Numbered from the stretch's first letter, positions 8,908 through 41,092 are shown. The stretch: 64,000 nt of DNA from a virus (IMGVR_UViG_3300028394_000040), one strand, 5' to 3'. Program-made: numbers and translations. The notes: a model not told the origin generated them from the sequence alone.

Positions 8908-10641
8908 TTATTGACCAAATGTAGCACCTGTTGGTGTAATATTGAAGTCAATTAAGATATACTCAGATGTCTTAGTTGGCTGTAAATAAATTGCACCTAC
9001 TAATTGGTTTCTGTCGATTACATCAGGTGTATTGTTAGTATCATCCATTACTACTTTAAATGCATACAATCCTTGTTTTTGTTGTACGTACTGTAAGTAT
9101 GGATTAACTTGGTTCAAGAAGTTATTTCTTGTTGCTTGAGTATTCGGTTCAAATAATAAAGTCTGAGAGATTTGATTAATTTGAGTCTTAAGAGCGATTA
9201 ACAATCTACGTACATTTACTCTGTCTAGAGCAGATGGTTTAGATTGTAATGTCTTTTGACCATAAATTACTGATCCTTGACCAGGGAATAAAGCGATTGG
9301 ATTTACTTTAGATTGGTATAAAGTATCTCTTTGTGCTGAAGATAATCTACGTTCTGGTTGAATTACTGTTGGTAAACCACCTCTGTTAAGACCAGCTGGT
9401 GCAAACCATTCTTGTCCTACTCTATCGTTATATTCGTATGCTGCAGGTATTACTGTAGATGCTGGGCAGAAGAATAGTTTTCCTGTCTCAGAAGAACGTA
9501 ATTGAACCCAAGGCCAATATGTTGCTGCATAACTATTATCTATTGATGTAGATTGTCCAGTTGCAGAATTAATCGTCTGTCCATAAGCAACAGTATCTAT
9601 TACTGCTATTGCGTCTCCTCTATTAGAAGCTAACGATATTAATGAGTTAACTGTAGAAGGAGCATTTTGTAAAGTAATACCAGGTGCAAAAATTACTTTA
9701 AATGAATAAGCATCTTTATTAGCTAACAAACTAATAGCTACATTGTAATCAGCAGCCGCTACTCCTTGTATATCGTTACCTGTCGTAGATGGAATTCTAT
9801 CGTATAATTTTATAGAAGCACTTACTGTTCCAGTAGCTCCACCAAAACATCCGTTATTTGAACCAGAACCTATTGTAGGAATAGAAGCTGTATAAGCTGC
9901 TACTGCTACCTGTCCTTGGGTATTTAAATAATTAGGTGTTGGTAAATTAACACTCTTTACATGAATATATCTACTGTTGTTATTATATGAACCGCTAGTA
10001 GCTAAGTAGTAATTTCCTGATTCATCTACTGTAGGTACAGTGAATTGATTACCTAAAACGTATTCTACGTAGTTATTTGAATTAGGGTCTAAAGACAATC
10101 CAGCCCAAGTTTCTAATACAGTTTTATTAGCCGAGTAATCGTCACCTCGTCTTACAATTATAGAAAATTGTCCGGATCCAGTGTCGGCAGCTGTTACTTC
10201 CCATCTTACATTAGTAATTGAACCACTTACCAAAGAACCAGATACTACACCTAAAGAAGCGCTGAAATCGTTATTCATTGATAACCCTTCAGAATTAGTC
10301 TCTAACGTTAATGCTGTTCCTGCTGTAGCTCCTAAAGAAGCAGTAGCAAAGTTATAAGAACCAGAAGCTACTCTAGTTACTAATAATGACTCTCCTCCTT
10401 GTTGGAAGTAGCTAAATGCAGCCATTGAAGTCAAATATTCGAAACTAGCACCACCGCTAGTAAATAAAGCACCAAATTTAGATTTATAATCTGAATAAGA
10501 AGTTACTAATGTAGGTTCGTTTACTACACCAATAACTGTTGGGCCAACGATTGCTGCCCCTACTGTAATAGGTCCTTGAGTAATTTGGGATGTATCATTC
10601 TCATTTAAGAATACCCCAGGGGATATTAAAGTTTCTGCCAT
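8908..10641 (-). CDS. gp18: Tail sheath protein (T4 gp18-like)
   Basis: N-terminal ISPGVFLNEND; WFAPAGLNRG; GQKTLQ..ALDRVNVRRLL; LFEPN; IYLQPTKTSEYI. Confidence 0.95.
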   Translation of the reverse strand: MAETLISPGVFLNENDTSQITQGPITVGAAIVGPTVIGVVNEPTLVTSYSDYKSKFGALFTSGGASFEYLTSMAAFSYFQQGGESLLVTRVASGSYNFATASLGATAGTALTLETNSEGLSMNNDFSASLGVVSGSLVSGSITNVRWEVTAADTGSGQFSIIVRRGDDYSANKTVLETWAGLSLDPNSNNYVEYVLGNQFTVPTVDESGNYYLATSGSYNNNSRYIHVKSVNLPTPNYLNTQGQVAVAAYTASIPTIGSGSNNGCFGGATGTVSASIKLYDRIPSTTGNDIQGVAAADYNVAISLLANKDAYSFKVIFAPGITLQNAPSTVNSLISLASNRGDAIAVIDTVAYGQTINSATGQSTSIDNSYAATYWPWVQLRSSETGKLFFCPASTVIPAAYEYNDRVGQEWFAPAGLNRGGLPTVIQPERRLSSAQRDTLYQSKVNPIALFPGQGSVIYGQKTLQSKPSALDRVNVRRLLIALKTQINQISQTLLFEPNTQATRNNFLNQVNPYLQYVQQKQGLYAFKVVMDDTNNTPDVIDRNQLVGAIYLQPTKTSEYILIDFNITPTGATFGQ

Positions 10642-10661
10642 GTCTAATTGAATTGTCTTAT

Positions 10662-10669
10662 TATAAATA
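10662..10669 (-). promoter_or_regulatory. TATTTATA motif upstream of the sheath gene (representative of about 18 copies)
   Basis: The same motif occurs intergenically at 6670, 7744, 8441, 11182, 11716, 20874, 35085, 39317, 42222, 44547, 46236, 48189, 51381, 54345, 56747, 59432 and 61920. Confidence 0.7.
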
Positions 10670-10691
10670 TACTATAATATGGCAAAACCGA

Positions 10692-10964
10692 TTACTGAGG
10701 TACTATTATTCCTGTCTCCAAGTCTACAGATGTACCACCGTATTTTTCTATAAGGCTGTCTGAAAATTCCTTCTCAGATTTACTTAACGTTTTTATATGT
10801 TGTTCGGCAATTTTAATCTCATTTTCAATTGACTTTAATTGCTTTTCAACCATATACTTTTGAAGATGTACTTGCCCTAAATCATATACTGATTTAGTAA
10901 AGTTTATTTCGAAAGTTTTTAATTGTTCTAATTCTTCTGGCGTAACTTTAGTTTCTGTAGACAT
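10692..10964 (-). CDS. Small coiled-coil protein, possibly a fibre assembly chaperone
   Basis: Heptad-rich, ends KYGGTSVDLETG; directly downstream of the fibre array. Confidence 0.55.
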   Translation of the reverse strand: MSTETKVTPEELEQLKTFEINFTKSVYDLGQVHLQKYMVEKQLKSIENEIKIAEQHIKTLSKSEKEFSDSLIEKYGGTSVDLETGIIVPQ

Positions 10965-10965
10965 T

Positions 10966-11169: not shown

Positions 11170-11192
11170 AATATTTTTATTTATAAATATAA

Positions 11193-11865: not shown

Positions 11866-14190
11866 TTATTTTGCTTTTAATGGTTCTACTATTACTTTAC
11901 CTTGTTCATCTGTCCATTCTGTATCCATCATATGTTTATCTTTTCTTTCTCCTATTACCATCCACGATATCTCATCTGTTGAATTTTGATTCTGACTTTC
12001 TATATAAATAATATTACCTATTACTTTTCCTTTTACTAAATCCCATCCATTCTCATTGGTGGTAAAACATTGAACTTCTCTACATAATGCTTCAAAAGTT
12101 CCTTCTGTCATTGTTGACACCTCATCAATATTAGCTTGAGCCTTACCATTAACAAGAGTTAACTTGCCTCTATAAATTAAGTCTGCTTGAGGACCTTCAA
12201 TAAATGAGTGAACTAATTGATGTGTATCAGGTTTTAATGGATGGTCTATTCTAAATGAACCTGAACCTTTAGATAATGAGCCTGCAACTACAACATTGCC
12301 AGCTGAAGTAACTCTTAATGCATTAGTTCCTGACATATAATTATATGCATTTAAACTATCATCATTATTTAGTACCCATTGATATTTTGCAGTACCAGCT
12401 CTTTTTAATATAAATCCAGTTTGACTTGAACTACCACCATTCATTTCGATAAAACAACTAGCAGATGAATTAATATTTACTAATTCAGGTGTAGTTGCAG
12501 TGCCAATTCCAATGTTACCAGTAGAGCCAATAACAAAATCACTTTGTACTCCAGTACTTGTTCCTCTTCCTAAAACAACATTATTTGAGTAAGCATTTAT
12601 TCCTCCTAAAGTTGTTCCACCATCTCCACTAAATTGAAGAGGGGCATATGTTCCACTTACAATAAATCTTGAACCTACTTCACTACCTCCAACAAGATGT
12701 AATTTATAACTTGGCGAACTCGTTCCAATACCTACGTTGCCAGCAGAGGTAATCGTTAAAGGAGTAGTCCAAGTTATTGCATTACCAGCGGTTCCAGTTA
12801 TCGCCGATTTAAAACTTAATGCTCCCGCCGATAATTGTAATTGCGAAGCAGTATTAGAACCTATATATTTCCATCCAGCATTATAATAAGCATTTACTGA
12901 TAATGCAGTTTCATATCCTCCATATTCATAAATACTTGCCGATTTTACTTGCAATACATTTTCTGTACCTCCTGCCCAAGCACTTGGAGTACTAGCTATT
13001 CCAACATTACTCGAAAACGTGGCTGCTCCTGTCACCCTCGCAGTACCTGTCACATCTAATTTATATCCTGCCCCCGTAGTAGTTCCTCCTAAAAGAAGGT
13101 TACCGTAAATTGCGGTGTCTGTTGTAGAACTATTACCAAGTACAGTAGTGTTAGAGCCAAGACCTGTAGCATCGTATCCGATTACTATTTGATTAGTTTG
13201 GTTGTTTGCTAAAGGAGATGCTTGAAAACCAATCATTATACTATTATCTAAAATAGTAGCTCCAGTTGACTTATTAGCAATAAACCTGCCTGCACTTCTT
13301 CCTATGAAAATATTATATGCACCTGTAGTATTACTAAATCCTGCTACTGAACCTAAATAAGAATTATAATTTCCTGTTGTATTAGCAGCCCCTGTATTTG
13401 AGCCTAAAAAGACATTATCAGAACCTGATGTATTATTACCGCCGGCACTATATCCAAAAAATACATTACTTGCACCTACAGAATTTGAATATCCAGAATA
13501 ATACCCAACAAAGGAATTAAAATTTCCTACTGTAGTACTGTATCCAGAGCCTAGACCTATACTCGTATTAGCAGTTCCTGTAACGTTTGTATAGCCAGCA
13601 TCTTTCCCAATAAATGTATTACTGGTTCCTGTTGTATTTGCTTGTCCTGCTTCAGATCCAACAACTGTATTAAAACTACCAGAACTATTTACTAACGCTC
13701 GATAACCAATAGCTGTATTGTTATTAGTTGTTGCATTATTAAGTGAAGCAGAAGCACCAAATGCTGTATTATAATTACCTGTAGTATTATTTAGCATTGC
13801 TCGAAACCCTACAGCTGTATTATTAACTATATCACCACCTCCTCTACCTAGATTTACATCATCTACAGCTAAACTACCAGTTATAGCTACTGAACCGGTA
13901 AATAAATGAGTATCCGTTAACAAAGAGCCAAACCTAGTAGAGCCTGTGACAAAATCGATTGATGATGTAATAGTCTGTACCACCAAGGTCTGTGCCGTAA
14001 GCGTTCCTTGCACTACCTGTGCACCAGTAAAGGTGTTTGAGCCTGTAGTAGCGTAACTACCTGTTTGAGCTATAAGAGCATCTACTTTGCTATTAGAAGA
14101 TGCTGTATAAGCATTAAGGTTAGCTGTAGTAGCAACTCCAACACCGTTTAAGTTTAAAGAACCGGTAACAGATATGTTTTGGTGTTTCAT
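11866..14190 (-). CDS. Tail fibre/spike 10: beta-roll (NTAxG) repeats and a C-terminal chaperone-like domain
   Basis: Shared TAQTLVVQTITSS..TGS core; NTAVGFRA/NTAFGASA/NTFIGKDAG repeats; GNVGIGT repeats; C-terminal SKGSGSFRIDHPL..LVHSFIEGP. Confidence 0.75.
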   Translation of the reverse strand: MKHQNISVTGSLNLNGVGVATTANLNAYTASSNSKVDALIAQTGSYATTGSNTFTGAQVVQGTLTAQTLVVQTITSSIDFVTGSTRFGSLLTDTHLFTGSVAITGSLAVDDVNLGRGGGDIVNNTAVGFRAMLNNTTGNYNTAFGASASLNNATTNNNTAIGYRALVNSSGSFNTVVGSEAGQANTTGTSNTFIGKDAGYTNVTGTANTSIGLGSGYSTTVGNFNSFVGYYSGYSNSVGASNVFFGYSAGGNNTSGSDNVFLGSNTGAANTTGNYNSYLGSVAGFSNTTGAYNIFIGRSAGRFIANKSTGATILDNSIMIGFQASPLANNQTNQIVIGYDATGLGSNTTVLGNSSTTDTAIYGNLLLGGTTTGAGYKLDVTGTARVTGAATFSSNVGIASTPSAWAGGTENVLQVKSASIYEYGGYETALSVNAYYNAGWKYIGSNTASQLQLSAGALSFKSAITGTAGNAITWTTPLTITSAGNVGIGTSSPSYKLHLVGGSEVGSRFIVSGTYAPLQFSGDGGTTLGGINAYSNNVVLGRGTSTGVQSDFVIGSTGNIGIGTATTPELVNINSSASCFIEMNGGSSSQTGFILKRAGTAKYQWVLNNDDSLNAYNYMSGTNALRVTSAGNVVVAGSLSKGSGSFRIDHPLKPDTHQLVHSFIEGPQADLIYRGKLTLVNGKAQANIDEVSTMTEGTFEALCREVQCFTTNENGWDLVKGKVIGNIIYIESQNQNSTDEISWMVIGERKDKHMMDTEWTDEQGKVIVEPLKAK

Positions 14191-14210
14191 TGTAAATTTT
14201 TATTGTCTTA

Positions 14211-15758
14211 TTATTTATTTTCTAATAGGGTTACTTTGGCTGAAAGTTCTTTTATAGCCTCTATTAATACAGGAATAATTTGATTATAAGAAACTCCTTT
14301 AATCCCATCAGTACAAGTACTAACGGCATACGGAAGTATTTTTTCAACCTCTTGAGCAATTACTCCATATTGATATTCATCATCTGCTTTCCACTGGTAA
14401 GAATAACCATTTAATTCCATTAATTTATCAATAGGATTATCAATGATTTGAAGGTTTTTCTTCAATCTTAAATCTGAGTTAGCAGTTATATTTCCCGTTG
14501 CATAAATAGCACCCGACACATAAAGCCTATATCCTCCATCGGTCAAAGTTCCCATTGAATTATTACCGTTTGTGTGAAGACATATTTGTCCATCAGTGCT
14601 ACTTGCTCTTAATTCAAATTTAGTATAAGTAGATAATGCCTCATTAATACCAACAAGAGAATAATATGAAGTATTGCCAGTTGTACCAAACATTCCAATG
14701 CTTGAATTACCAAAGAAAACATTACCACTAACTTGTAATTTAGTGCCAGTTGAATTACTTGTTGTTGTATTTATTAATACATTTCCATTAAAGGTAATAG
14801 CATTTGTAGATTTAATAATCTTCATTGCCATTGTACCATTACTATTGTATAACTCAAAGTTATTATCCTCTGAAGCTGCACCATTACCTAAATACCATTG
14901 ACTAACTCCACTTTGTTGAAATTCTATACTTGCTCCTTTATTTACTACACCATTTAAAAGTAATTTTACATTAGTTGCTGCAACTGCGCTACCAATTATT
15001 ACGTTGCCAGCAGCAGTAATGCGCATTTTTTCATTCCCATTAGTACCAAATCGCAAATTACCATTCATATTATTTCTAATGAATGTATCGGTAGCACTAT
15101 CTCCTCCAACAAATAATTCTAAATTACCAGTTGTATTTCTAAGTTGAATACCAGCATAAGCAGAACTACCTCCGACTGAAATACCAACCGTTGTAGCAAC
15201 ACCAAAATTAAGATTTGTTGTAGCGCCAATCCCAATGCTTGTTCCATCATCATAAATTGCACTATTCCCTATCGTACCACTTGCTGTAAACTTAGGCACA
15301 TAGTTAGCAGTACCGCTTCCTACTACGGCAGTAGTTCCGTTTATAGCTAAGCTACCTGTTATACCTACGCTTCCGGTAAGCTCTTGTACATTACTCAATG
15401 AAGAACCGATCTTATTACTACCGGTAGTAAATAAGACAGAAGACGTTACTGTCTGTACTATAAGGGTTTGTGCTGTAATAGAACCTAAAACCGTAGCATT
15501 ATTACGTACATATAATGTATCTGCCGAAGATGCAGTCATGGCATTAGAGCCAGTCAATGCATTTAATCCATAGCTAGAAGAAACGGCTGTTGTTGCAAAA
15601 GAAGCAGTACCGCTTAAAGTAGTAGTACCTAATGTTAACGTTGTAACAGAAGAGAAATCTAAAGCAGATCCAGAGAACGACATAGCTCCTGCATTAGAGG
15701 CAGATATCTGTGCTACTACCGTTCCGCTATTATTTTTAAATCGAAATTGTCCTGCCAT
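14211..15758 (-). CDS. Tail fibre/spike 9 with C-terminal peptidase S74 intramolecular chaperone
   Basis: NSDLRLKKNL..GVIAQEVEKILP..VSYNQIIPVLIEAIKEL. Confidence 0.85.
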   Translation of the reverse strand: MAGQFRFKNNSGTVVAQISASNAGAMSFSGSALDFSSVTTLTLGTTTLSGTASFATTAVSSSYGLNALTGSNAMTASSADTLYVRNNATVLGSITAQTLIVQTVTSSVLFTTGSNKIGSSLSNVQELTGSVGITGSLAINGTTAVVGSGTANYVPKFTASGTIGNSAIYDDGTSIGIGATTNLNFGVATTVGISVGGSSAYAGIQLRNTTGNLELFVGGDSATDTFIRNNMNGNLRFGTNGNEKMRITAAGNVIIGSAVAATNVKLLLNGVVNKGASIEFQQSGVSQWYLGNGAASEDNNFELYNSNGTMAMKIIKSTNAITFNGNVLINTTTSNSTGTKLQVSGNVFFGNSSIGMFGTTGNTSYYSLVGINEALSTYTKFELRASSTDGQICLHTNGNNSMGTLTDGGYRLYVSGAIYATGNITANSDLRLKKNLQIIDNPIDKLMELNGYSYQWKADDEYQYGVIAQEVEKILPYAVSTCTDGIKGVSYNQIIPVLIEAIKELSAKVTLLENK

Positions 15759-15761
15759 TTA

Positions 15762-17390
15762 TTATTTATTTTTTAATATTTCTATTTCTTCTTGCTGTAA
15801 ATCTATCTTTGCTGAAAGCTCTTGGATGGCTTTGGTTAATATTGGGACTAATTTAGAATAGTCTACTGCTTGTGGTTTAATAGTAGTATCCTCATTTATT
15901 GCGTCTTTTTCCCCAAATACCATATATGGTAATAATTCTTGTAGTTCGTGTGCTTTAACTCCGTATGCCCTTGTATTATCAATAGACCAAGCATAATTAT
16001 AAGTCTTAATTGCATTAATTAAACTTAATCCATTATAATCTTTAAAATCAGTTTTAAGTCTGTAATCTGAAGATGTATTGAAAGCAGTTGCTGATGTAGT
16101 TACTGTAATTGAACCAACATCTACATTGTTTCTTCTTATTCCCATAAATAAACCATCAGTAGTAGTTCTATTCCCATAAAACACATAACCTGTTCCTTCT
16201 ACCTGAATACTACTACCTGCTAATGTTGTCCCACTTGTGTTAGTTAAACCAGCATCTGTTCTACCTATCAATAGACTCCCCATTCTCATAGACATAACAT
16301 CGTAAATATTAGCCCCGACTTTCTGAGCAAATGTCCAAGTAATACCACCTGCCCCAGCATCTGTTGGATAGACATTCATATAATAAGAGGCTGGGCTAAC
16401 TTTAGTTGTTAATTTTAATGCATCCCCACTGTAATTATCTGGTGAAGCTGCTGTAATACTACTTGCATACGTGGCGGCACCAGTAGAATTAACTGCAAAT
16501 TTAGATGTCGTAGTTCCTCCATACCAAGTCAAACTTGGAGTTCCACCAGTATTATAATTTATATCAAAATTATATGAAGCATCACCTCCTAATTTTGTAT
16601 TAGTTAAATAAATATTATTTCCAGCCAAAACGGTTATGGGTCCATTAACAGTTAAAGTTGTAGTAGGAGAACTCGTCCCAATCCCTACGCTGCCAGCAGA
16701 GGTGATTCGTACTGCATTCGTAATAGTTCCTGCTCTAAGAGTACGAATGTTTAAATATCCATTAGTTGCACTTTCATATTCTCCTGATATAGCAGCATAC
16801 CTAGTTGTTCCACTGCCAAAATCTATTTGCCCGCCATTTGTTGAGCCTGAACCATAAACTTCAATACCAGCATATCCAGAACCTCCAGATGGTGCTAATA
16901 TTGTTAATGCCCTACTGTAAAGACCTAGGTTTAAAATTGTTGTTCCAATACCAACATTTGTCCCATCATCATAAATCAAACTATTTCCTATCGTATTACT
17001 TGCAGTAAACTTAGGCACATAGTTTGCTGTACCACTACCTACTACAGCAGTAGTCCCGTTTATAGCTAAACTACCAGTTATACCAACGCTACCTGTTAAC
17101 TGTTGTACGTTACTCAAAGAAGAGCCAATGATATTGCTCCCAGTAGTAAATAAGACAGAAGATGTTATAGTCTGTATTATTAAAGTCTGTGCAGTTATAT
17201 TACCTGTAGCTGTAATGCTGCCGGATATAATTTGAGAACCAGAAAAGTAATTAGAGCCAGTTAAAGCATAGGAACCTGTCTTCTGTACTAGATTATTGAC
17301 ACTTGAAGTAGTGGCATACGTAGACAAGTCTTGTAATGAAGTTCCATTATAATTTAAACTACCTGTAATTAAAGGAGCATCTATTCTCAT
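15762..17390 (-). CDS. Tail fibre/spike 8 with peptidase S74 chaperone
   Basis: TSSDYRLKTD..GVKAHELQE..VDYSKLVPILTKAIQEL. Confidence 0.85.
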   Translation of the reverse strand: MRIDAPLITGSLNYNGTSLQDLSTYATTSSVNNLVQKTGSYALTGSNYFSGSQIISGSITATGNITAQTLIIQTITSSVLFTTGSNIIGSSLSNVQQLTGSVGITGSLAINGTTAVVGSGTANYVPKFTASNTIGNSLIYDDGTNVGIGTTILNLGLYSRALTILAPSGGSGYAGIEVYGSGSTNGGQIDFGSGTTRYAAISGEYESATNGYLNIRTLRAGTITNAVRITSAGSVGIGTSSPTTTLTVNGPITVLAGNNIYLTNTKLGGDASYNFDINYNTGGTPSLTWYGGTTTSKFAVNSTGAATYASSITAASPDNYSGDALKLTTKVSPASYYMNVYPTDAGAGGITWTFAQKVGANIYDVMSMRMGSLLIGRTDAGLTNTSGTTLAGSSIQVEGTGYVFYGNRTTTDGLFMGIRRNNVDVGSITVTTSATAFNTSSDYRLKTDFKDYNGLSLINAIKTYNYAWSIDNTRAYGVKAHELQELLPYMVFGEKDAINEDTTIKPQAVDYSKLVPILTKAIQELSAKIDLQQEEIEILKNK

Positions 17391-20300
17391 TAGTTATTTA
17401 TTTTGCTTTCTAAATCTTTTACTTTTGCAGATAACTCTTTAACTGCGTTAACTAGTAATGCTGTTACTTTTGAATAGTCTAACACCATTATTTCTTCTTG
17501 GTTAAATTCTCTATACGAGATTAACTCAGGTTGTACTGCGTATACTTCTTGGGCTACTAATCCAATTTGTTTAGTTTTATCCCCGCTATATTCTGTAATC
17601 CAATCAAAGGTATATCCGTTTAATAATTCTATTTTATCTAAAGCTCCTTCTACTATTTCCAGATTAGTCTTTAATCGTAAATCAGATGTAGTATTAAAGT
17701 TATTAGCATCTACATCCCCGGAGAAGATACCTGAACCTGTTACGTTCATGCTTCCGGAGAATGAATAGTAACCGTTAGATCTATCTACAAATAACGAAGT
17801 AGTTCTAGCCCCTCCTTTAGAGATAATTGCATTACCTGATGTAGGTGTAACAAACGTAACTGTTAAAGTATTTACATCAGTAGCTGTTACTACTTGAGGT
17901 ATCATTAACTGGTCGTTATTATCGTAGATATCTACGTTTACGTACTTGTAATTTAATCCGTGATTAATTACCCAAGAACCAGTAGCACTTGTTTGCGTAA
18001 ATAAAAATCTATCTGCTTGTCCGGTAGAAATACCTCCTACAGAGACGTTAGCGTATCCGGCCTGTGCTACTGTAAAACGAACGCTAGTAGTATTGTTATC
18101 TACGCTGATAATCTCATCAGGTTGAATAACGTACCCTGTACTATCGTAAATTGTAACGTTTGGATAGTTATATTCTAAATTATGATTTACTGACCAAGTA
18201 TTAGCTGCAGAAGTCTGGCTATGTAGATACCTACTGTTATCTATATTAGCATTAGCAAAATCTACTGTACCAGATACAATAAATGTACCAGATACTAGAA
18301 GGCTACCAGTTATAACACCGGAACCAGAGAATGGAAAACCAGATCCGGCACCGCTACCAGAAATATATGATGCTGTAAATGCATACGATGCTGTCTGTGC
18401 GTTTAGTACATACGATGCTGTATATGAATTAGCAGCTTGTGATGCCGATATTGCATTCTGTACATATGAAGCAGTTAAAGCGTTAACAACATAGCTTGCT
18501 GTTTGAGCATTTGCTACATAAGACGCTGTCACTGCGAATGACGCACTCTGCGCATTTAAAACGTAAGATGCAGTAGGTACACTAGTTATCGGAGCCCATG
18601 AAGCAGAGTACGGAGACGCACTTCCTACAGTAAGGACATAGCCGGCGTAAGAAGCCGATATCGTTGGCAAGTCACCTCCTATGGTTGCTAAAGCATATCC
18701 AGAAGAGGCCGAGTCAAATAGTATAGTAGCAGATGCTGTTGTAGCTAAGATAATCGAAGTAGGTATTACCATTTCGAAGTTATCGTCAAAAGCCTGTACC
18801 ATTACGTACCTATCACCTAATGCATGATCAAAAGACCAGGTATTGGCTGTACTAAAGTACTGTCTTGCCGTTCTACCAGTTACTGTAGTAGGTGATCCAA
18901 TATTTGCTATCGCATATCCAGCTACGGCTGAACCGAAAGTTAATGTTAACGTATTAACATCGGTAGCAGTAATCGATTGGGGTACTATTACTTCATTCGA
19001 TGCGTTGTATACAGTTACGTTTGGATAACGATAATTTAACAGGTGATTAAATGTCCAAGTAGCAGATGGAGAAGATTGGGTAAATAATTTACCTCCTGCT
19101 ACTATTCCTGTAATGCCAGATCCGTCTCCAAAAAATGATCCTGTTATACCGCTTCCAGATACATTTAAACTACCAGTAATAACAGCTGAACCGCTAAAAG
19201 GAAAACCTACACCACCTCCTCCTCCGCCGTTTAGAGCAAAAGAAGCTGTTAAAGCATAGGAAGAAGATACTGCGTTGGCTACGAATGATGCTGTTAAGGC
19301 ATTTACTACGTAAGATGCTGTATAAGAATTAGCTGCTTGTGATGCCGATATTGCATTTGTTACATATGATGCTGTTAAGGCATTCACTACGTAAGAAGCA
19401 GTTAAGGCATTTACTACGTAAGAAGCTGTTCTAGCCGTATCTACGTAGCTGGCAGATTGGGCTAATGCTACAAAGGATGCAGTATATGCATTAGCTGCTT
19501 GAGATGCTGAAATTGCATTTACTACGTAAGAAGCAGTTAAAGCGTTTACTACGTAAGATGCTGTTAAAGCAAAAGAAGCAGTAGCCACAGACATCGATGA
19601 TGTTTGATTAGCCGTTATTACGTTAAACCCATTTAACTGTAAAGAACCAGTTATACCAGTAGATCCAGTTATTGCTTGGGTATCTGTTAATTGACTACCT
19701 AGTCTATTAGAACCGCTTGAAAAAACGATTGAGGATGTAATTGTCTGTACTACAAGTGTCTGTGCCGTTAATGTACCCCTTACTGTAAAGTTATCTGCCG
19801 TAGATGCTGTAGCTGCTAAAGAAGCAGATAAGGAATTTACTACGTAAGAAGCAGTCTGTGCATTAGCTACATAAGAAGCAGTAGTTGCTGTACCTAAAAG
19901 GGAGCCTGTAAATCCTAAAGTCGAAGTAACAGAGCCAGAAAAAATAGAAGAGCCAGTTACGCCTAACGATCCTGTAAATTGATGAGTATCTGTTAATAAA
20001 GTACCTACTTTTAAAGTTCCATCCAATCTAGTCGAACCAGATACATAAAATTTAGAAGGTATTGTGTAAATATTTGGGTAGTTAATTGCAACATTACCTG
20101 TAAAGGCTACGTTAGTTCCATTAGCAATTTGAAAAGCTCCACCCGTGGCATCCGAACCTAAGTTAAATACTTGTCCATTATTTGCAGCATTAGTAAATGC
20201 AAAACCACCACCAGGTCTTGATTGCATATAAAAACCTGGACTACTTCCACTAACGAATAATGCTAATTCAGAATAATTTTTTGAATTTATAGTAAGTCTT

Positions 20301-20857: not shown

Positions 20858-20929
20858 TGTGTATCTTCTTTACTATAAATATTTTGTACTCTACTAAGTA
20901 TACTTTTTATTGCTAAGTATTACTATTCA

Positions 20930-27719: not shown

Positions 27720-27774
27720 CTGTTAATCTTTTTTTTATTGTACTATTGTGCGTTTTCTAATGCGTTTGTTTTAC

Positions 27775-32100: not shown

Positions 32101-35026
32101 AGCTAACCGTTCCTTTTACATTAGAACCGCTAACATAGCTAGCAGTTATTGCTAGAGAAGCTGTAGCAGACTGCCCCAATACATAAGAAGCAGTAAGAGC
32201 AAAAGCTGAAAACGATGCACTAGTTGCTGTATCTGCTAAAGAAGCAGTGTAAGAACTACTTACTGTTCCTTTTACGTTAGAACCGCTTATGTATGATGCA
32301 GAAATTGAATTTACAACGTATGAAGCTGTAAGAGCGTTAACTACATATGATGCTGTTTGTGCATTAGCTACATAACTAGCTGTATATGCATTAGCAGCTT
32401 GAGATGCACTTATTGCATTCTGTACATAGGATGCCGTTAAAGCGTTGACAACATAACTAGCAGTAGCAGCTAAAGAAGCACTTATAGCATTCTGTACATA
32501 AGAAGCAGTTAAAGCGTTAACAACGTAAGAAGCTGTAAGGGCATTTACTACGTAGCTTGCTGTGTAAGAATTAGCTGCTTGTGATGCAGATATTGCATTT
32601 TGTACGTAAGAAGCAGTTAAAGCGTTTACTACATAACTAGCAGTTTGGGCATAGCTAGCAGAAGCAACCGACATACTTCCTGTCTGGTTTTCCAATACAA
32701 CCGGTATTCCATTTACCGTCAAGCTTCCAGTTATGCCAACTGAGCCGGTTAATTGCTGTACGTCTGATAAACTGTTACCAAATTTGTTAGAACCGCTGCT
32801 GTAAATTATAGAAGAACTAACGATTTGTACGTTAATTGATTGAGCGGTAATGTTACCAGTAAATAATGCGTTAGAACCAGAGAGATTATTCCTAACCAAT
32901 AGGTTATCAGCACTAGATGCTGTTAGTGCATTAGATGCTGTTAATGCATTCAATGCATATGATGCTGTTGTAGCTACATTAGCGTAAGAAGCCGATGTTG
33001 TATTGCTAGCATAAGAAGCAGATGTAGCTCTGTCTGCTAAAGAGGCTGTAAACGAAGAACTAACCGTACCAAATACATTAGAACCACTAACGTAGCTAGC
33101 AGTTACAGCTGATGAAGCTGTAGCAGGTATATTTAAAGCATATGATGCTGTAGTGGCAAAATCTGCATAAGATGCAGTTCCTAATAAGCTTCCAGTGAAA
33201 GAAGTAGCTCTAACTGTACCTAATACATTTATACTTCCAGTATTTTCAATAGAACCCGTAGAAATATATGATCCTGTGAATACCATTGTGTCGGCATTCA
33301 TAGTCATTAACGTAGTTCCAGTAGAGCCTACTAAATTAGTAGTACCTGATACTATTAATGAACCTGTAAAGGTAGCACTACCGGTAAACTGGCTGTTTGA
33401 ATTTACTTTCAGGCCGTAAGCTGGATCTACTGATGCTGTTACGCTTCCAGAAGCTATTCTTGTTACCTCTAACCCTACTATAGCAGAAGCAGTAACATAA
33501 GATGCTGTAGCTGCAGTAGTAGCAAAAGAAGAAGATAAAGCTGTATTAGAATAAGAAGCTGAGGTAGCTACGCTAGCATAGGATGCAGAAGTGGCTGTAT
33601 CAGCTAATGATGCAGTGAATGAACTGCTTACTGCTCCTTTTACATTAGAACCACTTACGTAAGAAGCAGTATAAGCATTATCCGCAATAGAAGCAGTATA
33701 AGAACTACTAACTGTACCTTTAACGTTAGAACCGCTTACATAACTTGCTGTAACTGCAGAAGAAGCAGTAGCAGGTATGTTTAAAGCATAAGATGCAGTA
33801 AGAGCAAAGCTAGAAAACGATGCAGTAGTAGCAGTATCAGATAGTGAGGCTGTAAATGAGCTACTAACAGTGCCTTTTACATTGGAACCACTTACATAAG
33901 ATGCAGATATTGCAAAGGAAGCTGTAACAGGTACGTTTAGAGCATATGATGCTGTAAGGGCAAAGCTAGAAAACGATGCTGTTGTAGCTGTATCTGCTAA
34001 AGAAGAAGTAAATGAACTACTAACAGTACCCTTAACATTACTTCCACTTACATATGATGAAGAAATAGCGGTAACGACATAAGATGCAGTCAGAGCATTA
34101 ACAACATAACTAGCTGTCAATGCATTTACTACATAAGAGGCAGTATAAGCATTATCGGCTATAGATGCCGTATAAGAAGAACTAACAGTTCCTTTTACAT
34201 TAGAACCACTTACAAATGATGCTGTATAAGCATTAGCAGCTTGAGAAGCAGAAATAGCATTCTGTACGTAAGAAGCTGTTAGAGCATTAACAACGTAGCT
34301 AGCTGTTTGAGCAAAGCTAGCAGTTGCTACAGACATACTTCCTGTCTGATTAGCCGTAATAACAGATTGATTATTTACTGTTAAACTACCTGTTATACCT
34401 ACTGAGCCAGTAAATTGCTGTATATCGGTAAGTTTGTTACCGAATATATTAGAACCGCTACTGTATACTGTAGATGAAGATACAATTTGTGCTACAATTT
34501 TTTGAGCAGTAATTGTTCCTGTAAATAATGCATCAGAACCAGTTAATACGTTTCTGATTATAAAGTTATCTGCAGAAGATGCTGTTAAAGCGTTAGATGC
34601 AGTTAATGCATTCAAAGCATAACTAGCAGTCGTAGGTACGTTTAACGCATAAGAAGCTGTATTAGCATACGATGCTGATAGAGCAGCTAAGGCATAGCTA
34701 GATGTAGCAGGTATGTTTAACGAATACGATGCTGTTGTAGCATAGTTAGCAAAAGATGCTGAGGTTGAATTGTTAGAATACGATGCGGATGTGGCAGTAG
34801 CTGCAGAACCAGCTTGACTGGCATAAGCTGCATAAGAAGCAGATACTACTGAGCCACTGCTGTCAGTACTTGCTAATGCAACGATTGATTCTGATGTTCC
34901 TTGTACCTTTTTTAAGTAGACTTTTGCGTCATAGGTGTTTATTGCTAACTCTCCTTGAGCTAAATCGCCAACACTTGGTACTTTTCCAGGTACAGAACTA
35001 CGTTTTAGTTCTATTTTTACTGCCAT
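29186..35026 (-). CDS. Long Ser/Thr/Ala-rich fibre 1 (1946 aa)
   Basis: N-terminal fibre-anchor-like IELKRSSVPGKVP..GELAINTYD; dozens of TASY repeats; three copies of the shared core; three 'WSFTHNL' domains. Confidence 0.8.
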   Translation of the reverse strand: MAVKIELKRSSVPGKVPSVGDLAQGELAINTYDAKVYLKKVQGTSESIVALASTDSSGSVVSASYAAYASQAGSAATATSASYSNNSTSASFANYATTASYSLNIPATSSYALAALSASYANTASYALNVPTTASYALNALTASNALTASSADNFIIRNVLTGSDALFTGTITAQKIVAQIVSSSTVYSSGSNIFGNKLTDIQQFTGSVGITGSLTVNNQSVITANQTGSMSVATASFAQTASYVVNALTASYVQNAISASQAANAYTASFVSGSNVKGTVSSSYTASIADNAYTASYVVNALTASYVVNALTASYVVTAISSSYVSGSNVKGTVSSSFTSSLADTATTASFSSFALTASYALNVPVTASFAISASYVSGSNVKGTVSSSFTASLSDTATTASFSSFALTASYALNIPATASSAVTASYVSGSNVKGTVSSSYTASIADNAYTASYVSGSNVKGAVSSSFTASLADTATSASYASVATSASYSNTALSSSFATTAATASYVTASAIVGLEVTRIASGSVTASVDPAYGLKVNSNSQFTGSATFTGSLIVSGTTNLVGSTGTTLMTMNADTMVFTGSYISTGSIENTGSINVLGTVRATSFTGSLLGTASYADFATTASYALNIPATASSAVTASYVSGSNVFGTVSSSFTASLADRATSASYASNTTSASYANVATTASYALNALTASNALTASSADNLLVRNNLSGSNALFTGNITAQSINVQIVSSSIIYSSGSNKFGNSLSDVQQLTGSVGITGSLTVNGIPVVLENQTGSMSVASASYAQTASYVVNALTASYVQNAISASQAANSYTASYVVNALTASYVVNALTASYVQNAISASLAATASYVVNALTASYVQNAISASQAANAYTASYVANAQTASYVVNALTASYVVNSISASYISGSNVKGTVSSSYTASLADTATSASFSAFALTASYVLGQSATASLAITASYVSGSNVKGTVSSSYTASIADNATSSSYALTASYAMNAGGGGGISAIYIADEGNLQGTSSFFNFNGAGVTATISAGTASIYIPGGGGGGDTNSANAVLLQTTPATTWSFTHNLGTTYPVFTIYDANDNVIVPQQIHAIDTGSAVIYFSSNRTGTAVASKGGNVVTASYVYTASYANQALTASYSHTASYIKTAQTASYVLNAVSSSYATNALTASYSLNVPLTASYALTASYVSGSDVKGTVSSSYTASIADFTFTASYALTSSFVTQSALSFQSAVSVKAAMNILKGQVTHIYGSDGTNLLITTASYLSDSTSANTLGIATANINNNAFGVVITEGILNGLNTSGLTAGDNLYLGANGTFTTTRPIAPLHAVRLGYVTKVSAGNGEIYVRVDNGYEIGELHDVVDNTTTGSYGDLLMKSGSVWTNKKELSGSYGLTGSLNVLGGVTVSNTITAQTLVVQTVTSSVQFVTGSTRFGSLQSNTHEFTGSVGITGSVTALSFTGSLLGTATTASYVANAQTASYVVNALTASYVVNSLTASYVQNAISASQSANSYTASYVANAQTASYVVNALTASYVVTALTASYVTNALTASYVQNAISASLAATASYVANAQTASYVVNALTASYVQNAISASQAANAYTASYVANAQTASYVVNALTASYVQNSITASYALTASYISGSAGVGFPFSGSAVITGSLYVTAGITGSLYGTSSFATSASFATFALSASNAPGFTTFLTQSVAATTWSFTHNLNSRHPLIQVYGSDYKQLIPNDIVGTSLYTAEIRFDYAATGFAVASNGGGLYATGSTSLLNQTSAAVTWSFTHNLNSKYVNFEVYDPSDYVIIPAAIKAVDTNTAELYFASAVTGKAVANFSGINGAPNATSASYAVTATSSSYALTATSASYAVTATSSSYALTATSASYAVTSSFINTLNQNVTVNSGYVLLTQVSQSLNFVDDTAAAAGGVPLGGLYRNGNFVLIRLA
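29364..29485. repeat. 54-bp exact coding tandem repeat, about 2.3 copies (ATSASYAVTATSSSYALT)
   Basis: actgcatatgatgcagatgtcgccgttaatgcataagaagaactagtagctgtt repeated. Confidence 0.85.
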
Positions 35027-35138: not shown

Positions 35139-36122
35139 TTAATACCCGAATCTTATTTTGTAGGTTGCGTGTAATGCTTGTATTTCCGCTAATGTTAATA
35201 CTCCGCTATATACTTTTACAAATCCTACATCTCCAGTCACAGGTTCAATACTTGTAGTAGAAGTATTAAATCTACCAAATAATCTTAAACCATTAAATCC
35301 ACCACTTCCTGTACGAGTCCCATTTGTTGTAGTAGGTGCAGTATTGGTAGCAATATACGCTTTTGAACTATTAGTTGTATTTAATCCATCGTCGGTAAGC
35401 CATATAAAGCGCCAAGTAGCAGTAGCGGTAGTTGAATTAGCACCAACAAATGAACCATTAAATGCAATATTCATACGAGTTGTACCCGATGCCCATATAC
35501 CCATTAAGAAATCAGGCGATAATGAGTTAGCATTTAGCAACCTACCCCCCGTTACACCATCCCATTTGTATGCCATAAATACCGTATAAGCTTGAGTTCC
35601 GGATGAATAATTAGGTCCACCATAAAACATATCGGATGTACCTGTTGATGATTTTCTAAATACTCCACCATTTGCCGAATTCCACGCCATACTAGTACTG
35701 GTATTTGTCATTGTAATAGTATAGGCACCTGTACCGGCAATTGTAGAACCATTAGTAGGCATTGCCGAATAGTTAGCGGCATCTAGATCAAATACTAAAG
35801 CAGCAGCAGGGGCTGGTATATTAGATGCGGTAGGGGTGTTAGTAGGTGTAGGGGTAGAAGTTAACGTTGGTGTTGCAGTACTGCTATTAGTAGGGGTAGA
35901 AGTTAACGTTGGTGTTGCAGTACTGCTATTAGTAGGCGTCTGTGTTAATGTAGGAGTAGACGTTGGAGTTTGCGTTGCGGTTTGTGTAGCTGTAGTAGTA
36001 GCAGTTGGTGTTGGTACCGGTTGAGAAGAACCAGAAAGATTAAACGATATACCACCACTATTTAAAACATTAACGAAAGATAAGCTACCTGAACCGCTGG
36101 AATTAATTATATGTAGTGCCAT
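35139..36122 (-). CDS. Virion protein with Pro/Thr mucin-like linker and LamG/ConA-like lectin domain
   Basis: TPTATTT..TPTNTPT linker; LVFDLDAANY..GDVGFVKVYSGVLTLAEIQ. Confidence 0.7.
   Translation of the reverse strand: MALHIINSSGSGSLSFVNVLNSGGISFNLSGSSQPVPTPTATTTATQTATQTPTSTPTLTQTPTNSSTATPTLTSTPTNSSTATPTLTSTPTPTNTPTASNIPAPAAALVFDLDAANYSAMPTNGSTIAGTGAYTITMTNTSTSMAWNSANGGVFRKSSTGTSDMFYGGPNYSSGTQAYTVFMAYKWDGVTGGRLLNANSLSPDFLMGIWASGTTRMNIAFNGSFVGANSTTATATWRFIWLTDDGLNTTNSSKAYIATNTAPTTTNGTRTGSGGFNGLRLFGRFNTSTTSIEPVTGDVGFVKVYSGVLTLAEIQALHATYKIRFGY
35851..35934. repeat. 42-bp exact duplication in the Pro/Thr linker
   Basis: ggggtagaagttaacgttggtgttgcagtactgctattagta, two copies. Confidence 0.85.
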
Positions 36123-36131: not shown

Positions 36132-36353
36132 TTAAAAACTACCTCCGTCAACAGGATTGCCATTATAAGAACCAGATTCTACATTAGGTGAATCCGTAAC
36201 GTAGAATGAACCAGAAACTCTTAATGAAGGAGTACTAGGGTTCGTCTGTAAGATTGTGGCAGACCCAGAGACAACAAAGCTACCAGTAGCTATTAGTTGA
36301 CTGCCAGATACTCTTAAAGGTACTTCTATTTGATCTAATGTAACTCTTGCCAT
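36132..36353 (-). CDS. Small virion structural protein, SGS-rich
   Basis: 73 aa with five [ST]GS motifs; ends DGGSF. Confidence 0.6.
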   Translation of the reverse strand: MARVTLDQIEVPLRVSGSQLIATGSFVVSGSATILQTNPSTPSLRVSGSFYVTDSPNVESGSYNGNPVDGGSF

Positions 36354-36354
36354 G

Positions 36355-38131: not shown

Positions 38132-38132
38132 C

Positions 38133-39296
38133 TTATCCTATGTAAATCATTAATGGTATGTTATCTAAAGTAGATTTCATAGCTATATTCTCTGCCTGTT
38201 TTCTTTCTAACTGGCTTTGTCTTGTAGTTTGATCCAAATCTCCTCTTAATTTTTCTAGCAGAGAAGCTTTTTCTGCTCTTGCATCCGTCAATAAGTCAGC
38301 TTGATTTAAAGTCGTCTCATCTCCCGGTACAGGAATAATAGAGTATTTACCTCTTATATAAGCTAAAGCTTCTTTAGCTAAAGCAGAAGTGTACTCAAAT
38401 ATCCAATATCTCCCCGGAGAATTAATTTGACTGTATGTAGGATTAGCGTACGGTACATTACTAACATTCGTGACCAAATTTCTTGACCCAGAGTACGGGC
38501 CGTTTGCTGGATTTCTTGCATCGAATTCTGTTGTATATTCAAACCACATATGCCCTACAGCGTCTCCTGGTATAGGGAATACTTTTAATTTATTATCTGT
38601 TAACTCAAAAGAGAATTGTGAACGTCTAACTTGGTCAGACATCTCAATCGCCTGTATTCTTTGGATGTCCCAATATAAAGGGAACATCATATAAGATACT
38701 GCAGGAGAATAAGAACCCCATCCAAACGTTTCCATTAAGCCTTGGTAGTTGTAACCTGAGCCTAAATAAGGGTCAAAGTAACGAACTATAGCAGGTGTCT
38801 GTTGGTAGAATACCCTTTGTATTCTTATTGAATCACCAGGCTGTAATGAAGCAGAAGATGATGCCCAAGCATTAAGGTCATAAACTTGTTTACGTGCTTC
38901 TAGTTCAACCGACCCCGAACGCCATTCAACGTACCCTCCTACACCTATTTGCTGGCCGTAATTGTCAGCTATAGCTATAAGATTAGCTAACCCAGGGTTT
39001 ACTACTGTGTTATTTAATGCTGAGCCGGTAAGAGAACCTTCAAGACTTAAATAGTTATCTCTAATTTTCATTAGATAAACTTCATTACCGTAGGTAGTTA
39101 CTGCTTCTTCAAAACAAGAAAAGAAGTTAATATCTTGGAGCTCAACCTCCATAATAGGATAGCCAAGCTTTCTTGCACAGAATACAGCTACTTTATTAGC
39201 GTCTGATTGGAAAGAAGAATCGGAATCGTAAAATCCAAATGGAGTACTTCCAGTATAGAATGAGCTAGACCCTGGCCATATAGGTTTATTTGCCAT
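38133..39296 (-). CDS. Neck protein (T4 gp13-like)
   Basis: RKLGYPIMEVEL..WIFEYTSALAKE..IRGKY..TLNQADLL..ends P..IYIG. Confidence 0.8.
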   Translation of the reverse strand: MANKPIWPGSSSFYTGSTPFGFYDSDSSFQSDANKVAVFCARKLGYPIMEVELQDINFFSCFEEAVTTYGNEVYLMKIRDNYLSLEGSLTGSALNNTVVNPGLANLIAIADNYGQQIGVGGYVEWRSGSVELEARKQVYDLNAWASSSASLQPGDSIRIQRVFYQQTPAIVRYFDPYLGSGYNYQGLMETFGWGSYSPAVSYMMFPLYWDIQRIQAIEMSDQVRRSQFSFELTDNKLKVFPIPGDAVGHMWFEYTTEFDARNPANGPYSGSRNLVTNVSNVPYANPTYSQINSPGRYWIFEYTSALAKEALAYIRGKYSIIPVPGDETTLNQADLLTDARAEKASLLEKLRGDLDQTTRQSQLERKQAENIAMKSTLDNIPLMIYIG

Positions 39297-39341
39297 TTAA
39301 TTACAATGTAGTTTTATATAAATAGGGAAGCTCTCGTAAAT

Positions 39342-39370
39342 AAAAAAACAAGCCCCCAAAGGAGGCTTGC
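39342..39370 (-). terminator. Intrinsic terminator after the major capsid gene
   Basis: Minus strand reads CAAGCCTCC-TTT-GGGGGCTTG-TTTTTTT. Confidence 0.8.
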
Positions 39371-39403
39371 TTTAATTACTCTTACTCGTCTTATTAGTTA
39401 AGA

Positions 39404-41092
39404 TTAAACAATGTTTAATCCTGCAACTAATACTTTTCCATAAAACTCTGGGCGAACCATTTTCTTAGCGTAACGAGTCATGATACCTTTACGTGGAGTA
39501 AATGTATTTGGATCGTACACTAATGGAGTCATAATTAATGGAATATAAGGAGCGTAAACGGCACCAGTCTCTAAGAATTGGTTACCACGGAAGCCCATCA
39601 AAATAACGTTCTCAAGCATATATGGATTCTTGTACACTTTGTAACGAGAATTTAATTGACCTACTTTTTGAACACCGAATGCATACTTCATGTTGTCTGC
39701 AGCACCGTCTGTATCAGCGGCAAATCCTGGAATAGATTCCAAAATAGTCGATACAGCTGGAGAACATACTAAGAAATTAGCACCACCACGTAATGTACGC
39801 TGATGAATTGTGTTAGAAACTTTCTGTAACTTAATACCTAAAGTTTGGAACCAAGACATTTGAGTGTAGTATACACCTGATGTGTTACTATCGAATGCAG
39901 TAGTAGTAGCATTGATTTGATCACCTACTTTTGCAGACCAGTACTCAGTAATAGGAGCGTTTTGGATCAACATATCTAAGATTTCTAAGTCAATCTCTAA
40001 AGAGATATATTCAGATAACATAGAAGTTAATTCAGCTTCTGCATCTAATGAATGGTAAGCATTTAAGTCTTGAGCAAATTCTGGAGTCCATTGTGCTTTT
40101 AACTTACGAGTCTTAGCAGAGATAGCCTCAGAACGCATCTGTACGTTAATTTCTGGTATAACGATAGATGTTGCAGACTGATTGTTTGGATAAGCATATC
40201 CAGAAGTAGAATCTTCAAAGTCACCACGAGTAGCAAATCCTGTTTTCTTGCTGTATACAACTTTGTATGCACCAGCAGCAGCAACAGCTTCAGCATTAGA
40301 AGCAGATACTAAGAAGATAGCATTACCTCCATCTAAACGGTGGAAACGTTGTAAGTTATCACCAACTGCAACAGATCCTGAAGTCAAAATAAATGAACGA
40401 ATAGCGTTAGGATCGATGTTTGAATCGATAGACGCTGTAGGTACTGTGATTTTTTTGATTGACATACCAGCAGCTACCAAAGCGATAGAAGCAGAGAATG
40501 CTGAATCAAAATTAACATCAGACCAAGAAGCAGAAGCTACTGCAACACCAGAAGCGTTATAAGCTACAGATGCAGAGAAATCGTTAATTGAATAACCGAA
40601 ACGACCAGCATCATATAAACCACCTTGAGCAGCATTACCCATTCCACTGTCACCTACGTTAGTTTGGTAACCGAATAATGAACCGGAAGTTGCTCCAGTA
40701 GAGAAAGGATCTACACCAGAAGTTCCGTATTGGAAATCTAGATAGAAAATTAAACCAGCAGGTAAGTTCATTGGTTGTACTGAAACAAATTCTTTAGAAG
40801 CAATTTGTCCGAATACTTTACGTACCAAAGGAAGAGCTACACCAGCCCATTGTTCACCAGTACCAACTGTAAAGTTAGCACCTGAAGTTGTACCACCACC
40901 AGTAGAAGAAGATTCTACTACTAATTGTTTTGCTTGATTCTCTAGAATCATAGCCATGTTTTGCTTGTTTTGGCCTTCAAGACCTTCTAGCAAGCCGGAT
41001 TTGCCCCACTTCTTAACTAAACGCGCAGCATCAGATTGAACTGTATGGTACGGATTAGCAGATTCAAGCAACGAATGTAATGTATTTGACAT
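39404..41092 (-). CDS. gp23: Major capsid protein (T4 gp23-like)
   Basis: VSVQPMNLPAGLIFYLDF; AKTRKLKAQWTPEFAQDLNAYHSLDAEAELT; YAPYIPL..PRKGIMTRYA. Confidence 0.97.
   Translation of the reverse strand: MSNTLHSLLESANPYHTVQSDAARLVKKWGKSGLLEGLEGQNKQNMAMILENQAKQLVVESSSTGGGTTSGANFTVGTGEQWAGVALPLVRKVFGQIASKEFVSVQPMNLPAGLIFYLDFQYGTSGVDPFSTGATSGSLFGYQTNVGDSGMGNAAQGGLYDAGRFGYSINDFSASVAYNASGVAVASASWSDVNFDSAFSASIALVAAGMSIKKITVPTASIDSNIDPNAIRSFILTSGSVAVGDNLQRFHRLDGGNAIFLVSASNAEAVAAAGAYKVVYSKKTGFATRGDFEDSTSGYAYPNNQSATSIVIPEINVQMRSEAISAKTRKLKAQWTPEFAQDLNAYHSLDAEAELTSMLSEYISLEIDLEILDMLIQNAPITEYWSAKVGDQINATTTAFDSNTSGVYYTQMSWFQTLGIKLQKVSNTIHQRTLRGGANFLVCSPAVSTILESIPGFAADTDGAADNMKYAFGVQKVGQLNSRYKVYKNPYMLENVILMGFRGNQFLETGAVYAPYIPLIMTPLVYDPNTFTPRKGIMTRYAKKMVRPEFYGKVLVAGLNIV

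Follow-up and report, generated by a model that had tools for sequence, protein, structure and literature searches.

A Ser-small-Ser mark on the outward-facing virion proteins of aquatic T4-like phages and its possible role as a glycan attachment site

Results

Motif-bearing genes of the structural module

The DNA analysed here is a stretch of 64,000 nucleotides (nt) from the virus IMGVR_UViG_3300028394_000040, referred to below as the window. It contains the structural module of a T4-like myophage, with all genes on the minus strand, and our subject is a tripeptide, [ST]-[GAS]-S, that recurs in the outer virion proteins encoded there. An earlier note, drawn up from the sequence alone and covering positions 8908 to 41092, had proposed this tripeptide as the acceptor site of a phage-encoded virion O-glycosylation system and had pointed to a glycosyltransferase (GT) and a methyltransferase gene at 61942–64000. 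The genes and domains that carry the motif in excess are the following (lengths in amino acids, aa).

2107..4098, minus strand: tail/baseplate-region protein of 663 aa; 8 matches against 1.7 expected; outside the range covered by the earlier note
8908..10641, minus strand: tail sheath, 577 aa, 10 matches (PHROG 23, E = 6e-75; the core matches T4 gp18 residues 431–652)
9772..10389, minus strand: outer domain of the sheath, residues ~85–290, with all 10 sheath matches
11866..29184, minus strand: nine fibre or tail-spike genes, 201 matches together (tail-fibre PHROGs; z 2.8–15.9)
29186..35026, minus strand: giant fibre, 1946 aa, 172 matches, mostly 9-residue (27-nt) tandem repeats [TS]-A-S-Y-[VA]-x-N-A-x plus VSGSNVKGTVSSS modules
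36132..36353, minus strand: 73-aa protein, 5 matches (VSGSQ, ATGSF, VSGSA, VSGSF, ESGSY); no match in a PHROG and Pfam family search
38133..39296, minus strand: gp13-like neck (head-tail adaptor) protein, 7 matches (PHROG 211)
39404..41092, minus strand: gp23-like major capsid protein, 562 aa, 8 matches (PHROG 138, E = 5e-71)
40223..40735, minus strand: insertion domain of the capsid protein, residues ~120–290, with 7 of the 8 capsid matches

By capsid identity, the closest isolates are Flavobacterium phage immuto (58%) and Microcystis phage Mel-JY01 (50%). Both were used for comparison, together with four complete genomes of relatives (G001–G004) and related capsid, neck and sheath proteins from IMG/VR. 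T4, RM378 and LR756508 served as outgroups, and five large phages carrying a GT60 gene (G005–G009) were included as well.

Motif excess in outer virion proteins

Matches to [ST]-[GAS]-S were compared with 2000 whole-protein shuffles, with local shuffles within 30 residues and with a first-order Markov expectation. The capsid protein holds 8 matches where the shuffles give 2.5 (z 3.6), and seven of them fall within residues 136–265 (TSGSL, FSASV, ASASW, FSASI, PTASI, TSGSV and VSASN). All 10 matches of the sheath (3.1 expected, z 4.0) lie at residues 93–276, with none in the C-terminal core. The neck protein has 7 matches against 1.2 expected (z 5.4) and the 73-aa protein 5 against 1.0 (z 4.2), while the ten fibre genes reach 373 in total, with z values of 2.8–23 per gene. 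Expressed as fold excess over the shuffles, this amounts to 3–6 in the capsid, sheath, neck, 73-aa and 663-aa proteins and to 2–5 in every fibre gene. Portal, terminase, scaffold and tube contain no match, the tape-measure candidate contains two, and the remaining 39 proteins of the window have 11 where 17.6 are expected. Our recount agrees with the earlier figures for capsid, sheath, neck and 73-aa protein, with the seven peptides of the capsid insertion as they had been listed, and with the description of the inner proteins as nearly empty; the enrichment also holds against the shuffled controls.

Composition, local composition and dipeptide bias are ruled out by the three types of control, since a 2.2-fold excess remains even over the first-order Markov expectation. 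The residue after the motif is hydrophobic in 58–69% of the matches (background 30–33%), as had been described. The most strongly enriched tripeptide in the non-fibre virion proteins is SGS (18 against 2.2 expected), followed by SAS (8 against 2.1), and SGS alone occurs 422 times in 144 sheath outer regions, where 86 are expected. The core of the motif is thus narrower than originally written, with SGS foremost. SGT, SVS, NGS, DGS, AGS and ASA do not exceed expectation in non-fibre virion proteins or sheath outer regions. Consequently, the excess does not reflect a general clustering of small residues, and a generic polar-x-polar strand pattern is likewise ruled out, TVT being unenriched too. 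Serine is encoded by a mixture of codons at the sites; the signal therefore resides in the protein and not in a DNA motif. The Bacteroidota sequon D-[ST]-[AILVMT] occurs about as often as expected in capsid, sheath, neck and fibres, in line with the earlier view that the two marks are distinct.

Conservation among relatives and absence from outgroups

The excess is found throughout the relatives. Means are 6.5 matches in 82 related capsids (2.3 expected), 4.1 in 53 related neck proteins (1.1 expected) and 9.0 in 120 close sheaths (2.7 expected), compared with ~0.1 in each of the relatives' portals, terminases and scaffolds. In a set of 140 diverse sheath representatives, 1133 matches lie in the outer part, where 460 are expected, and 60 in the core, where 63 are expected, which bears out the proposed confinement to outer virion domains. 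In G001–G004, enrichment is limited to the fibres, capsid, sheath and neck and to a few large, unassigned open reading frames (ORFs), and the remaining proteome is at expectation (357 observed, 367 expected).

Individual sites are retained as well. In the 82 capsids, FSAS is kept in 96%, YSAS in 77%, PT[AS]S in 78%, TSGS in ~83% and VS[GA]S in 82%, and seven sheath sites are kept in 67–99% of 104 relatives. The serine columns of the capsid motifs are 71% conserved, other serine columns 28%. At conserved sites, Ser and Thr are interchangeable at position 1, position 2 is Gly, Ala or Ser, and the residue after the tripeptide is hydrophobic. Position 3, by contrast with position 1, is Ser in 72–100% of the relatives and Thr in at most 9% (capsid sites 61 and 187 and sheath site 274 excluded). 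Judged from these alignments, the substitution pattern looks like that of a sequon.

In T4, the 28 virion proteins contain 38 matches where 39 are expected; hence, myophage particles do not show the excess as a rule. Capsids and sheaths of RM378 and LR756508 have 0–2 matches against ~1–2 expected, and their capsids are 37% and 50% identical to that of the window phage, respectively. Despite this identity, the LR756508 capsid keeps the motif at none of the eight capsid sites. Since this and the other outgroups do without the motif, the fold does not need it. Sheaths of the G005 type, with ~800 aa of outer domains, have one match against 3.9 expected. No homology was detected between the capsid insertion and the outer domain of the sheath (hhalign probability 0.2%), as had been assumed, and a mobile domain common to both proteins is thereby ruled out.

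On this comparative evidence, [ST]-[GAS]-S, in most cases with a hydrophobic residue behind it, is a mark under selection at the protein level and is confined to the outward-facing parts of the virion. It spans a large clade of aquatic T4-like phages, comprising the window phage, its relatives from IMG/VR, immuto and Mel-JY01. A literature search found nothing on an [ST]-[GAS]-S motif in virion proteins.

Structural setting of the sites

No solved structure covers the capsid insertion or the sheath outer domain, and AlphaFold2 models were used. The sheath model has a predicted local distance difference test score (pLDDT) of 85. The capsid model is poor (overall pLDDT 47), and the insertion domain alone (pLDDT 55–83) was considered, with caution. 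About half of the 16 sites in capsid and sheath are placed at a strand end or in a hairpin. Most sites of the modelled capsid insertion are at strand ends, for instance residues 238–240 between E235–238 and E241 (E, strand). Of the ten sheath sites, one is predicted in a 4-residue hairpin and one in the middle of a strand. Three are located in a low-confidence loop of variable length (residues 123–144) that has the look of a VSGSL duplication, and the others are modelled in coil or at the ends of strands and helices. In these models no single structural role fits all sites, and none of the sites is demonstrably buried.

Fibre repeats

A period of 27 nt was detected in the arrays of the giant fibre by Tandem repeat finder. 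In this protein, 109 of the 172 matches keep a 9-residue register, and a spacing of nine residues is seen 75 times. Judged by the regular period of DNA and protein and by the constrained positions of the unit, this is a tandem structural repeat of the fibre shaft; the unit TASYVxNAL belongs to no Pfam family. Over all fibre genes, 164 of the 373 matches (~44%) are in strict 9-residue register and are copies of this repeat. Most fibre genes match the same tail-fibre PHROG families and are likely related to one another. At least two of them (17390–20857 and 23967–26066) end in a Peptidase_S74 intramolecular chaperone domain (Pfam PF13884), as found in endosialidase-type trimeric fibres. Because of the shared register and this kinship, the 373 matches are far from independent. 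The earlier estimate of "well over a hundred" fibre matches is therefore surpassed as a count but overstates the number of independent sites. Fibres without 9-residue arrays are still enriched about three-fold. Since the same tripeptide is built into the shaft repeats, structural and acceptor roles are inseparable in the fibres.

The glycosyltransferase island at 61942 and mucin-like proteins

The genes at the end of the window, to which the motif had been linked, and a further protein of the structural operon are listed here.

35139..36122, minus strand: 327-aa protein with a Thr/Pro-rich mucin-like tract at ~35778–36020
61942..63618, minus strand: 558-aa protein with an N-terminal HtrL_YibB-type domain (putative GT-A; Pfam PF09612); last gene of the island
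63618..64000, minus strand: C-terminal methyltransferase-like part of a 446-aa GT34-like/methyltransferase fusion that crosses the window end (PHROG methyltransferase, E = 2e-12)

The 558-aa protein matches PF09612 over residues 3–257 (E = 1e-13, 51.9 bits, cut-off 24.1), and its C-terminal ~300 aa match no family. Homologues occur in XacN1-type jumbo phages. The exact protein is also encoded on a 169-kb JGI metagenome contig, where locus L086 provides ~10 kb beyond the window end. On L086 the 446-aa fusion is complete, with matches to Glyco_transf_34 (E = 8e-13) and, weakly, Methyltransf_12. The whole island (L086:1-11677 plus 61942–64000 of the window) has four genes, namely a GT60 gene, an unassigned 392-aa gene, the fusion and the HtrL-like gene. 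The GT60 gene, situated on L086 just past the window, encodes 417 aa and matches PF11397 with 226 bits (cut-off 21, E = 1e-66). It is preceded by two large proteins with long Thr/Pro-rich mucin-like tracts. The tract of the 327-aa protein, with 65% Thr plus Pro over 40 aa, shares a TPTNSSTATPTLTST unit with these two proteins and includes a perfect 42-nt tandem repeat at 35848–35936; its [ST]-[GAS]-S count is at expectation (5 against 3.9).

GT60, HtrL-like genes and Thr/Pro-rich proteins are present in G001 and G003 and absent in G002 and G004, and immuto lacks the GT60 and HtrL-like genes. Island and Thr/Pro-rich proteins occur together in all three island-bearing genomes, and the latter are missing from both genomes without the island. 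In IMG/VR, a Thr/Pro-rich ORF was found within 10 kb of 58 of 80 GT60 loci, often directly upstream on the same strand, compared with 4 of 80 similarly sized capsid loci that served as controls. The motif behaves differently. Its counts in capsid, sheath and neck are equal in island-bearing and island-free complete genomes, G002 and G004 matching the window, and its capsid positions are the same in the island-free G002, G004 and immuto as in island carriers. In turn, the sheaths of G005–G009 (729–1121 aa) have 1–4 matches where 2–4 are expected, although GT60 is present. By this double dissociation, the mark is independent of the GT60/HtrL island from 61942 onward, and the idea that the motif changes in step with the GTs encoded there is contradicted.

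GT60 polypeptide alpha-GlcNAc transferases initiate mucin-type O-glycosylation on Ser/Thr-rich mucin domains of protists such as Dictyostelium and Trypanosoma cruzi (PMC8724618). Together with the co-occurrence of GT60 and Thr/Pro-rich tracts, this makes those tracts, rather than Ser-small-Ser, the likely acceptors. The island is a mobile module that probably acts on mucin-like tracts such as that of 35139–36122. The island's GT60 directly follows Thr/Pro-rich genes in most phage loci and differs from the protist enzymes in being phage-borne and, presumably, cytoplasmic.

Beside the island, a 100-aa ORF at 61614–61916 has homologues of 280–343 aa in G002–G004 with 8–12 motif matches (2–3 expected); the island may have entered a longer virion gene or landed next to one. 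An adjoining gene (61187–61624) encodes a SegE-type GIY-YIG homing endonuclease.

A conserved GT4-GT4-GT2 block

Relatives entirely without GTs were not found among the genomes compared. Those without the island keep the mark, but every relative carries GT4 and GT2 genes, and the refuting case named in the earlier note, the motif in relatives that lack GTs, therefore does not fully arise. These were read in the relatives' genomes, outside the 64-kb window. G001–G004 and immuto share two adjacent GT4 genes (~480 and ~435 aa), a ~150-aa gene and a GT2 gene of ~208 aa. Next to this block are variable sugar-nucleotide genes, among them one for an RfbH-like dehydrase (G002) and others for WecE-like aminotransferases (immuto). 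The glycan loci beside the GT4 pair in G002 and immuto encode neither a flippase nor a polymerase nor any further polytopic membrane protein, and this absence speaks for soluble acceptors. The variable sugar-nucleotide and GT loci extend over 19000–32000 of contig C1 in G002 (L101–L102) and over 49172–59988 in immuto (NC_055915.1; L130), and they include a GDP-mannose-dehydratase-like gene and a GT2-GT10 fusion.

Among GenBank phages, the 435-aa GT4 occurs only in immuto and Mel-JY01, both of them isolates with a motif excess. Distant copies of the 480-aa GT4 are found in RM378 and LR756508, and G005 and G006 lack the 435-aa gene. Pair and motif are present together in G001–G004, immuto and Mel-JY01, and both are absent in T4, RM378, LR756508, G005 and G006. 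The NCBIfam models of GtfA and GtfB are unmatched by the GT4 pair, and this identity is therefore ruled out.

Words of the TATTTAT type stand 5–60 nt before the starts of the sheath, neck, portal, giant fibre and scaffold genes, where they replace the T4 late-promoter word TATAAATA. A search upstream of the GT4 pair, which covered the T4 word and not that of the clade itself, found no match.

Other genes of the window

The capsid gene is followed by those for prohead protease, portal and large terminase; nuclease- and primase-like genes and unassigned genes come next. An endolysin-like gene at 53492–54331 combines PG_binding_1 and Glyco_hydro_19. The 444-aa protein at 58093–59427 has weak cytidylyltransferase-like matches (PHROG E = 1.5e-8; Pfam below cut-off) and may serve sugar activation.

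Discussion

We tentatively propose that the Ser-small-Ser mark is a recognition signal on virion proteins, and that the serine at position 3 would be O-glycosylated in the cytoplasm, before or during assembly. The candidate enzyme is the soluble, clade-conserved GT4-GT4-(150 aa)-GT2 block, and the adjoining variable sugar-nucleotide and GT genes might elaborate the glycan. The result would be a sugar coat on capsid, sheath, neck and fibres. A glycan attachment site served by this block is quite conceivable, if still short of probable, because the mark is independent of the fold, specific to the clade, specific for Ser and restricted to the exterior. Of the original proposal of phage-encoded virion O-glycosylation, it holds that the phage encodes enzymes of a protein-glycosylation type, whereas the link to 61942–64000 does not.

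Several observations weigh against the proposal. The match between motif and GT4 pair sets one clade against outgroups, which is effectively one evolutionary event and therefore weak evidence. In Mel-JY01, the 480-aa GT4 is split by TGA and TAA into two ORFs (PP395634.1 83441–84932; L134, L136), and the sheath excess is kept. The capsid of immuto, which grows on Flavobacterium sp. LMO8, has only 3 matches against 1.8 expected although the GT4 pair is present; the sheath and gp056 of this phage do carry an excess. The pair matches no NCBIfam model of a known protein O-glycosyltransferase; weak generic GT4 hits are far below the cut-offs. In the fibre repeat, per-position consensus shows all nine positions to be constrained and not the serines alone. 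Furthermore, a structural role suffices for at least some sites, because positions are conserved, sheath sites 139, 216 and 259 have an invariant Gly, and one site is a tight hairpin, TGSG at 154–157, modelled between strands E145–153 and E158–165.

A purely structural origin is accordingly a possibility to be taken seriously. Hydroxyl-small-hydroxyl would then end strands, form tight turns or line the solvent face of edge strands, the fibre copies would belong to the shaft repeat, and sites would be inherited within each protein family with nothing attached. The retention of site positions in most relatives is what this predicts, as are the invariant glycines, the placement of about half of the modelled sites at strand ends or in hairpins, and the [GA]-S-hydrophobic that RM378 retains at four homologous capsid positions. 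The constrained fibre repeat fits too, its conserved Asn at position 7 being of the kind that forms Asn ladders in beta-solenoids. However, structure gives no reason for unrelated folds of one clade to converge on one tripeptide when T4, RM378, LR756508 and sheaths of the G005 type do not. NG and DG, which commonly form turns, are unenriched, position 3 refuses the Thr that position 1 accepts, and a capsid of 50% identity lacks the motif at all eight sites. Fold independence, clade specificity and exterior restriction would equally suit some other recognition or surface chemistry, such as paired hydroxyls binding a host or environmental polysaccharide, a site for an assembly chaperone, or another modification of Ser. 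As side chains two residues apart (i and i+2) point to the same side of a strand, S-x-S would present two hydroxyls together. No candidate partner was identified, though, and many sites are modelled in loops rather than strands, and we consider this explanation unlikely.

The remaining two alternatives carry little weight. That the mark is the sequon of the GT and methyltransferase genes at 61942–64000 is highly improbable: these are genuine GT-type genes on the same strand, but the island-free G002 and G004 keep capsid counts and positions as well as sheath and neck counts, the GT60-bearing G005–G009 have no sheath excess, and the island travels with Thr/Pro-rich proteins. A compositional artefact or chance can practically be dismissed. 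Virion proteins are indeed rich in Ser, Thr, Gly and Ala, but a 2- to 8-fold excess survives whole-protein, 30-residue local and first-order Markov controls and recurs across 82 capsids, 120 close sheaths, 150 diverse ones and four whole genomes.

If attachment by the GT4 block is combined with the findings on the island, a two-tier arrangement would emerge, in which the GT4 pair would glycosylate the serine of [ST]-[GAS]-S-hydrophobic marks and the mobile GT60 island would supply Thr/Pro-rich stalk proteins with mucin-type glycans. This combination is rather doubtful as a whole.

Known systems offer partial parallels. In mycobacteriophages, virion glycosylation has reportedly been demonstrated chemically, and the GT genes are said to adjoin the structural genes. 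The candidate enzymes in the present clade are instead a GT4 pair tens of kb away, and the acceptor candidate, known here from sequence, is the short [ST]-[GAS]-S that recurs inside many proteins. Both kinds of phage encode GTs, in the window phage the GT60, GT34-like and HtrL-like island; those of mycobacteriophages were proposed to decorate capsid and tail proteins (Freeman et al. 2023, as cited in PMC12801897 and PMC11256854).

Among bacterial systems the GT4 block recalls a further case. GtfA and GtfB O-GlcNAcylate serine-rich-repeat adhesins of Gram-positive bacteria. The likeness lies in two adjacent GT-B proteins of ~480 and ~435 aa, of which the latter has the weaker GT signature, and in Ser-x-Ser acceptors; apart from the missing NCBIfam match, the acceptors differ in being isolated tripeptides in folded domains and not long Ser-rich tracts. 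The BAHT heptosyltransferases TibC and Aah act on the beta-helix repeats of autotransporters, and a comparable cytoplasmic glycosylation of Ser inside structural beta-repeats would apply to the 9-residue fibre repeats. A homologous enzyme was not seen in the phages, and no search aimed at one was made. The general O-glycosylation of Bacteroidota, the phylum of immuto's host Flavobacterium, also uses a short Ser/Thr sequon. It works outside the cytoplasm, whereas virions assemble inside it, and its D-[ST]-[AILVMT] is not enriched here. Shafts of trimeric phage fibres carry short repeats, for example the octapeptide of the T4 gp5 beta-helix. Our fibres resemble them in their tandem peptides of alternating small and hydrophobic residues and in their Peptidase_S74 ends, and differ from T4 gp5-type shafts in a 9-residue unit outside any Pfam family.

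Whichever explanation applies, the Ser-small-Ser mark and the module of GT60 and mucin-like proteins, which had been merged in the earlier note, are now separated, and the latter is widespread in phage contigs. If the mark were structural only, it would be a clade-specific signature of turns or strand edges, of limited wider interest. If the two-tier arrangement is true, it would extend sequon-directed glycosylation of virions beyond mycobacteriophages for the first time. As an attachment site, the mark would provide a function for the large glycan loci without export genes that are common in aquatic phages. A large and abundant phage group would then shield capsid, tail and fibres with a glycan coat of its own making, with a bearing on host recognition, grazing, aggregation and the survival of particles in water.

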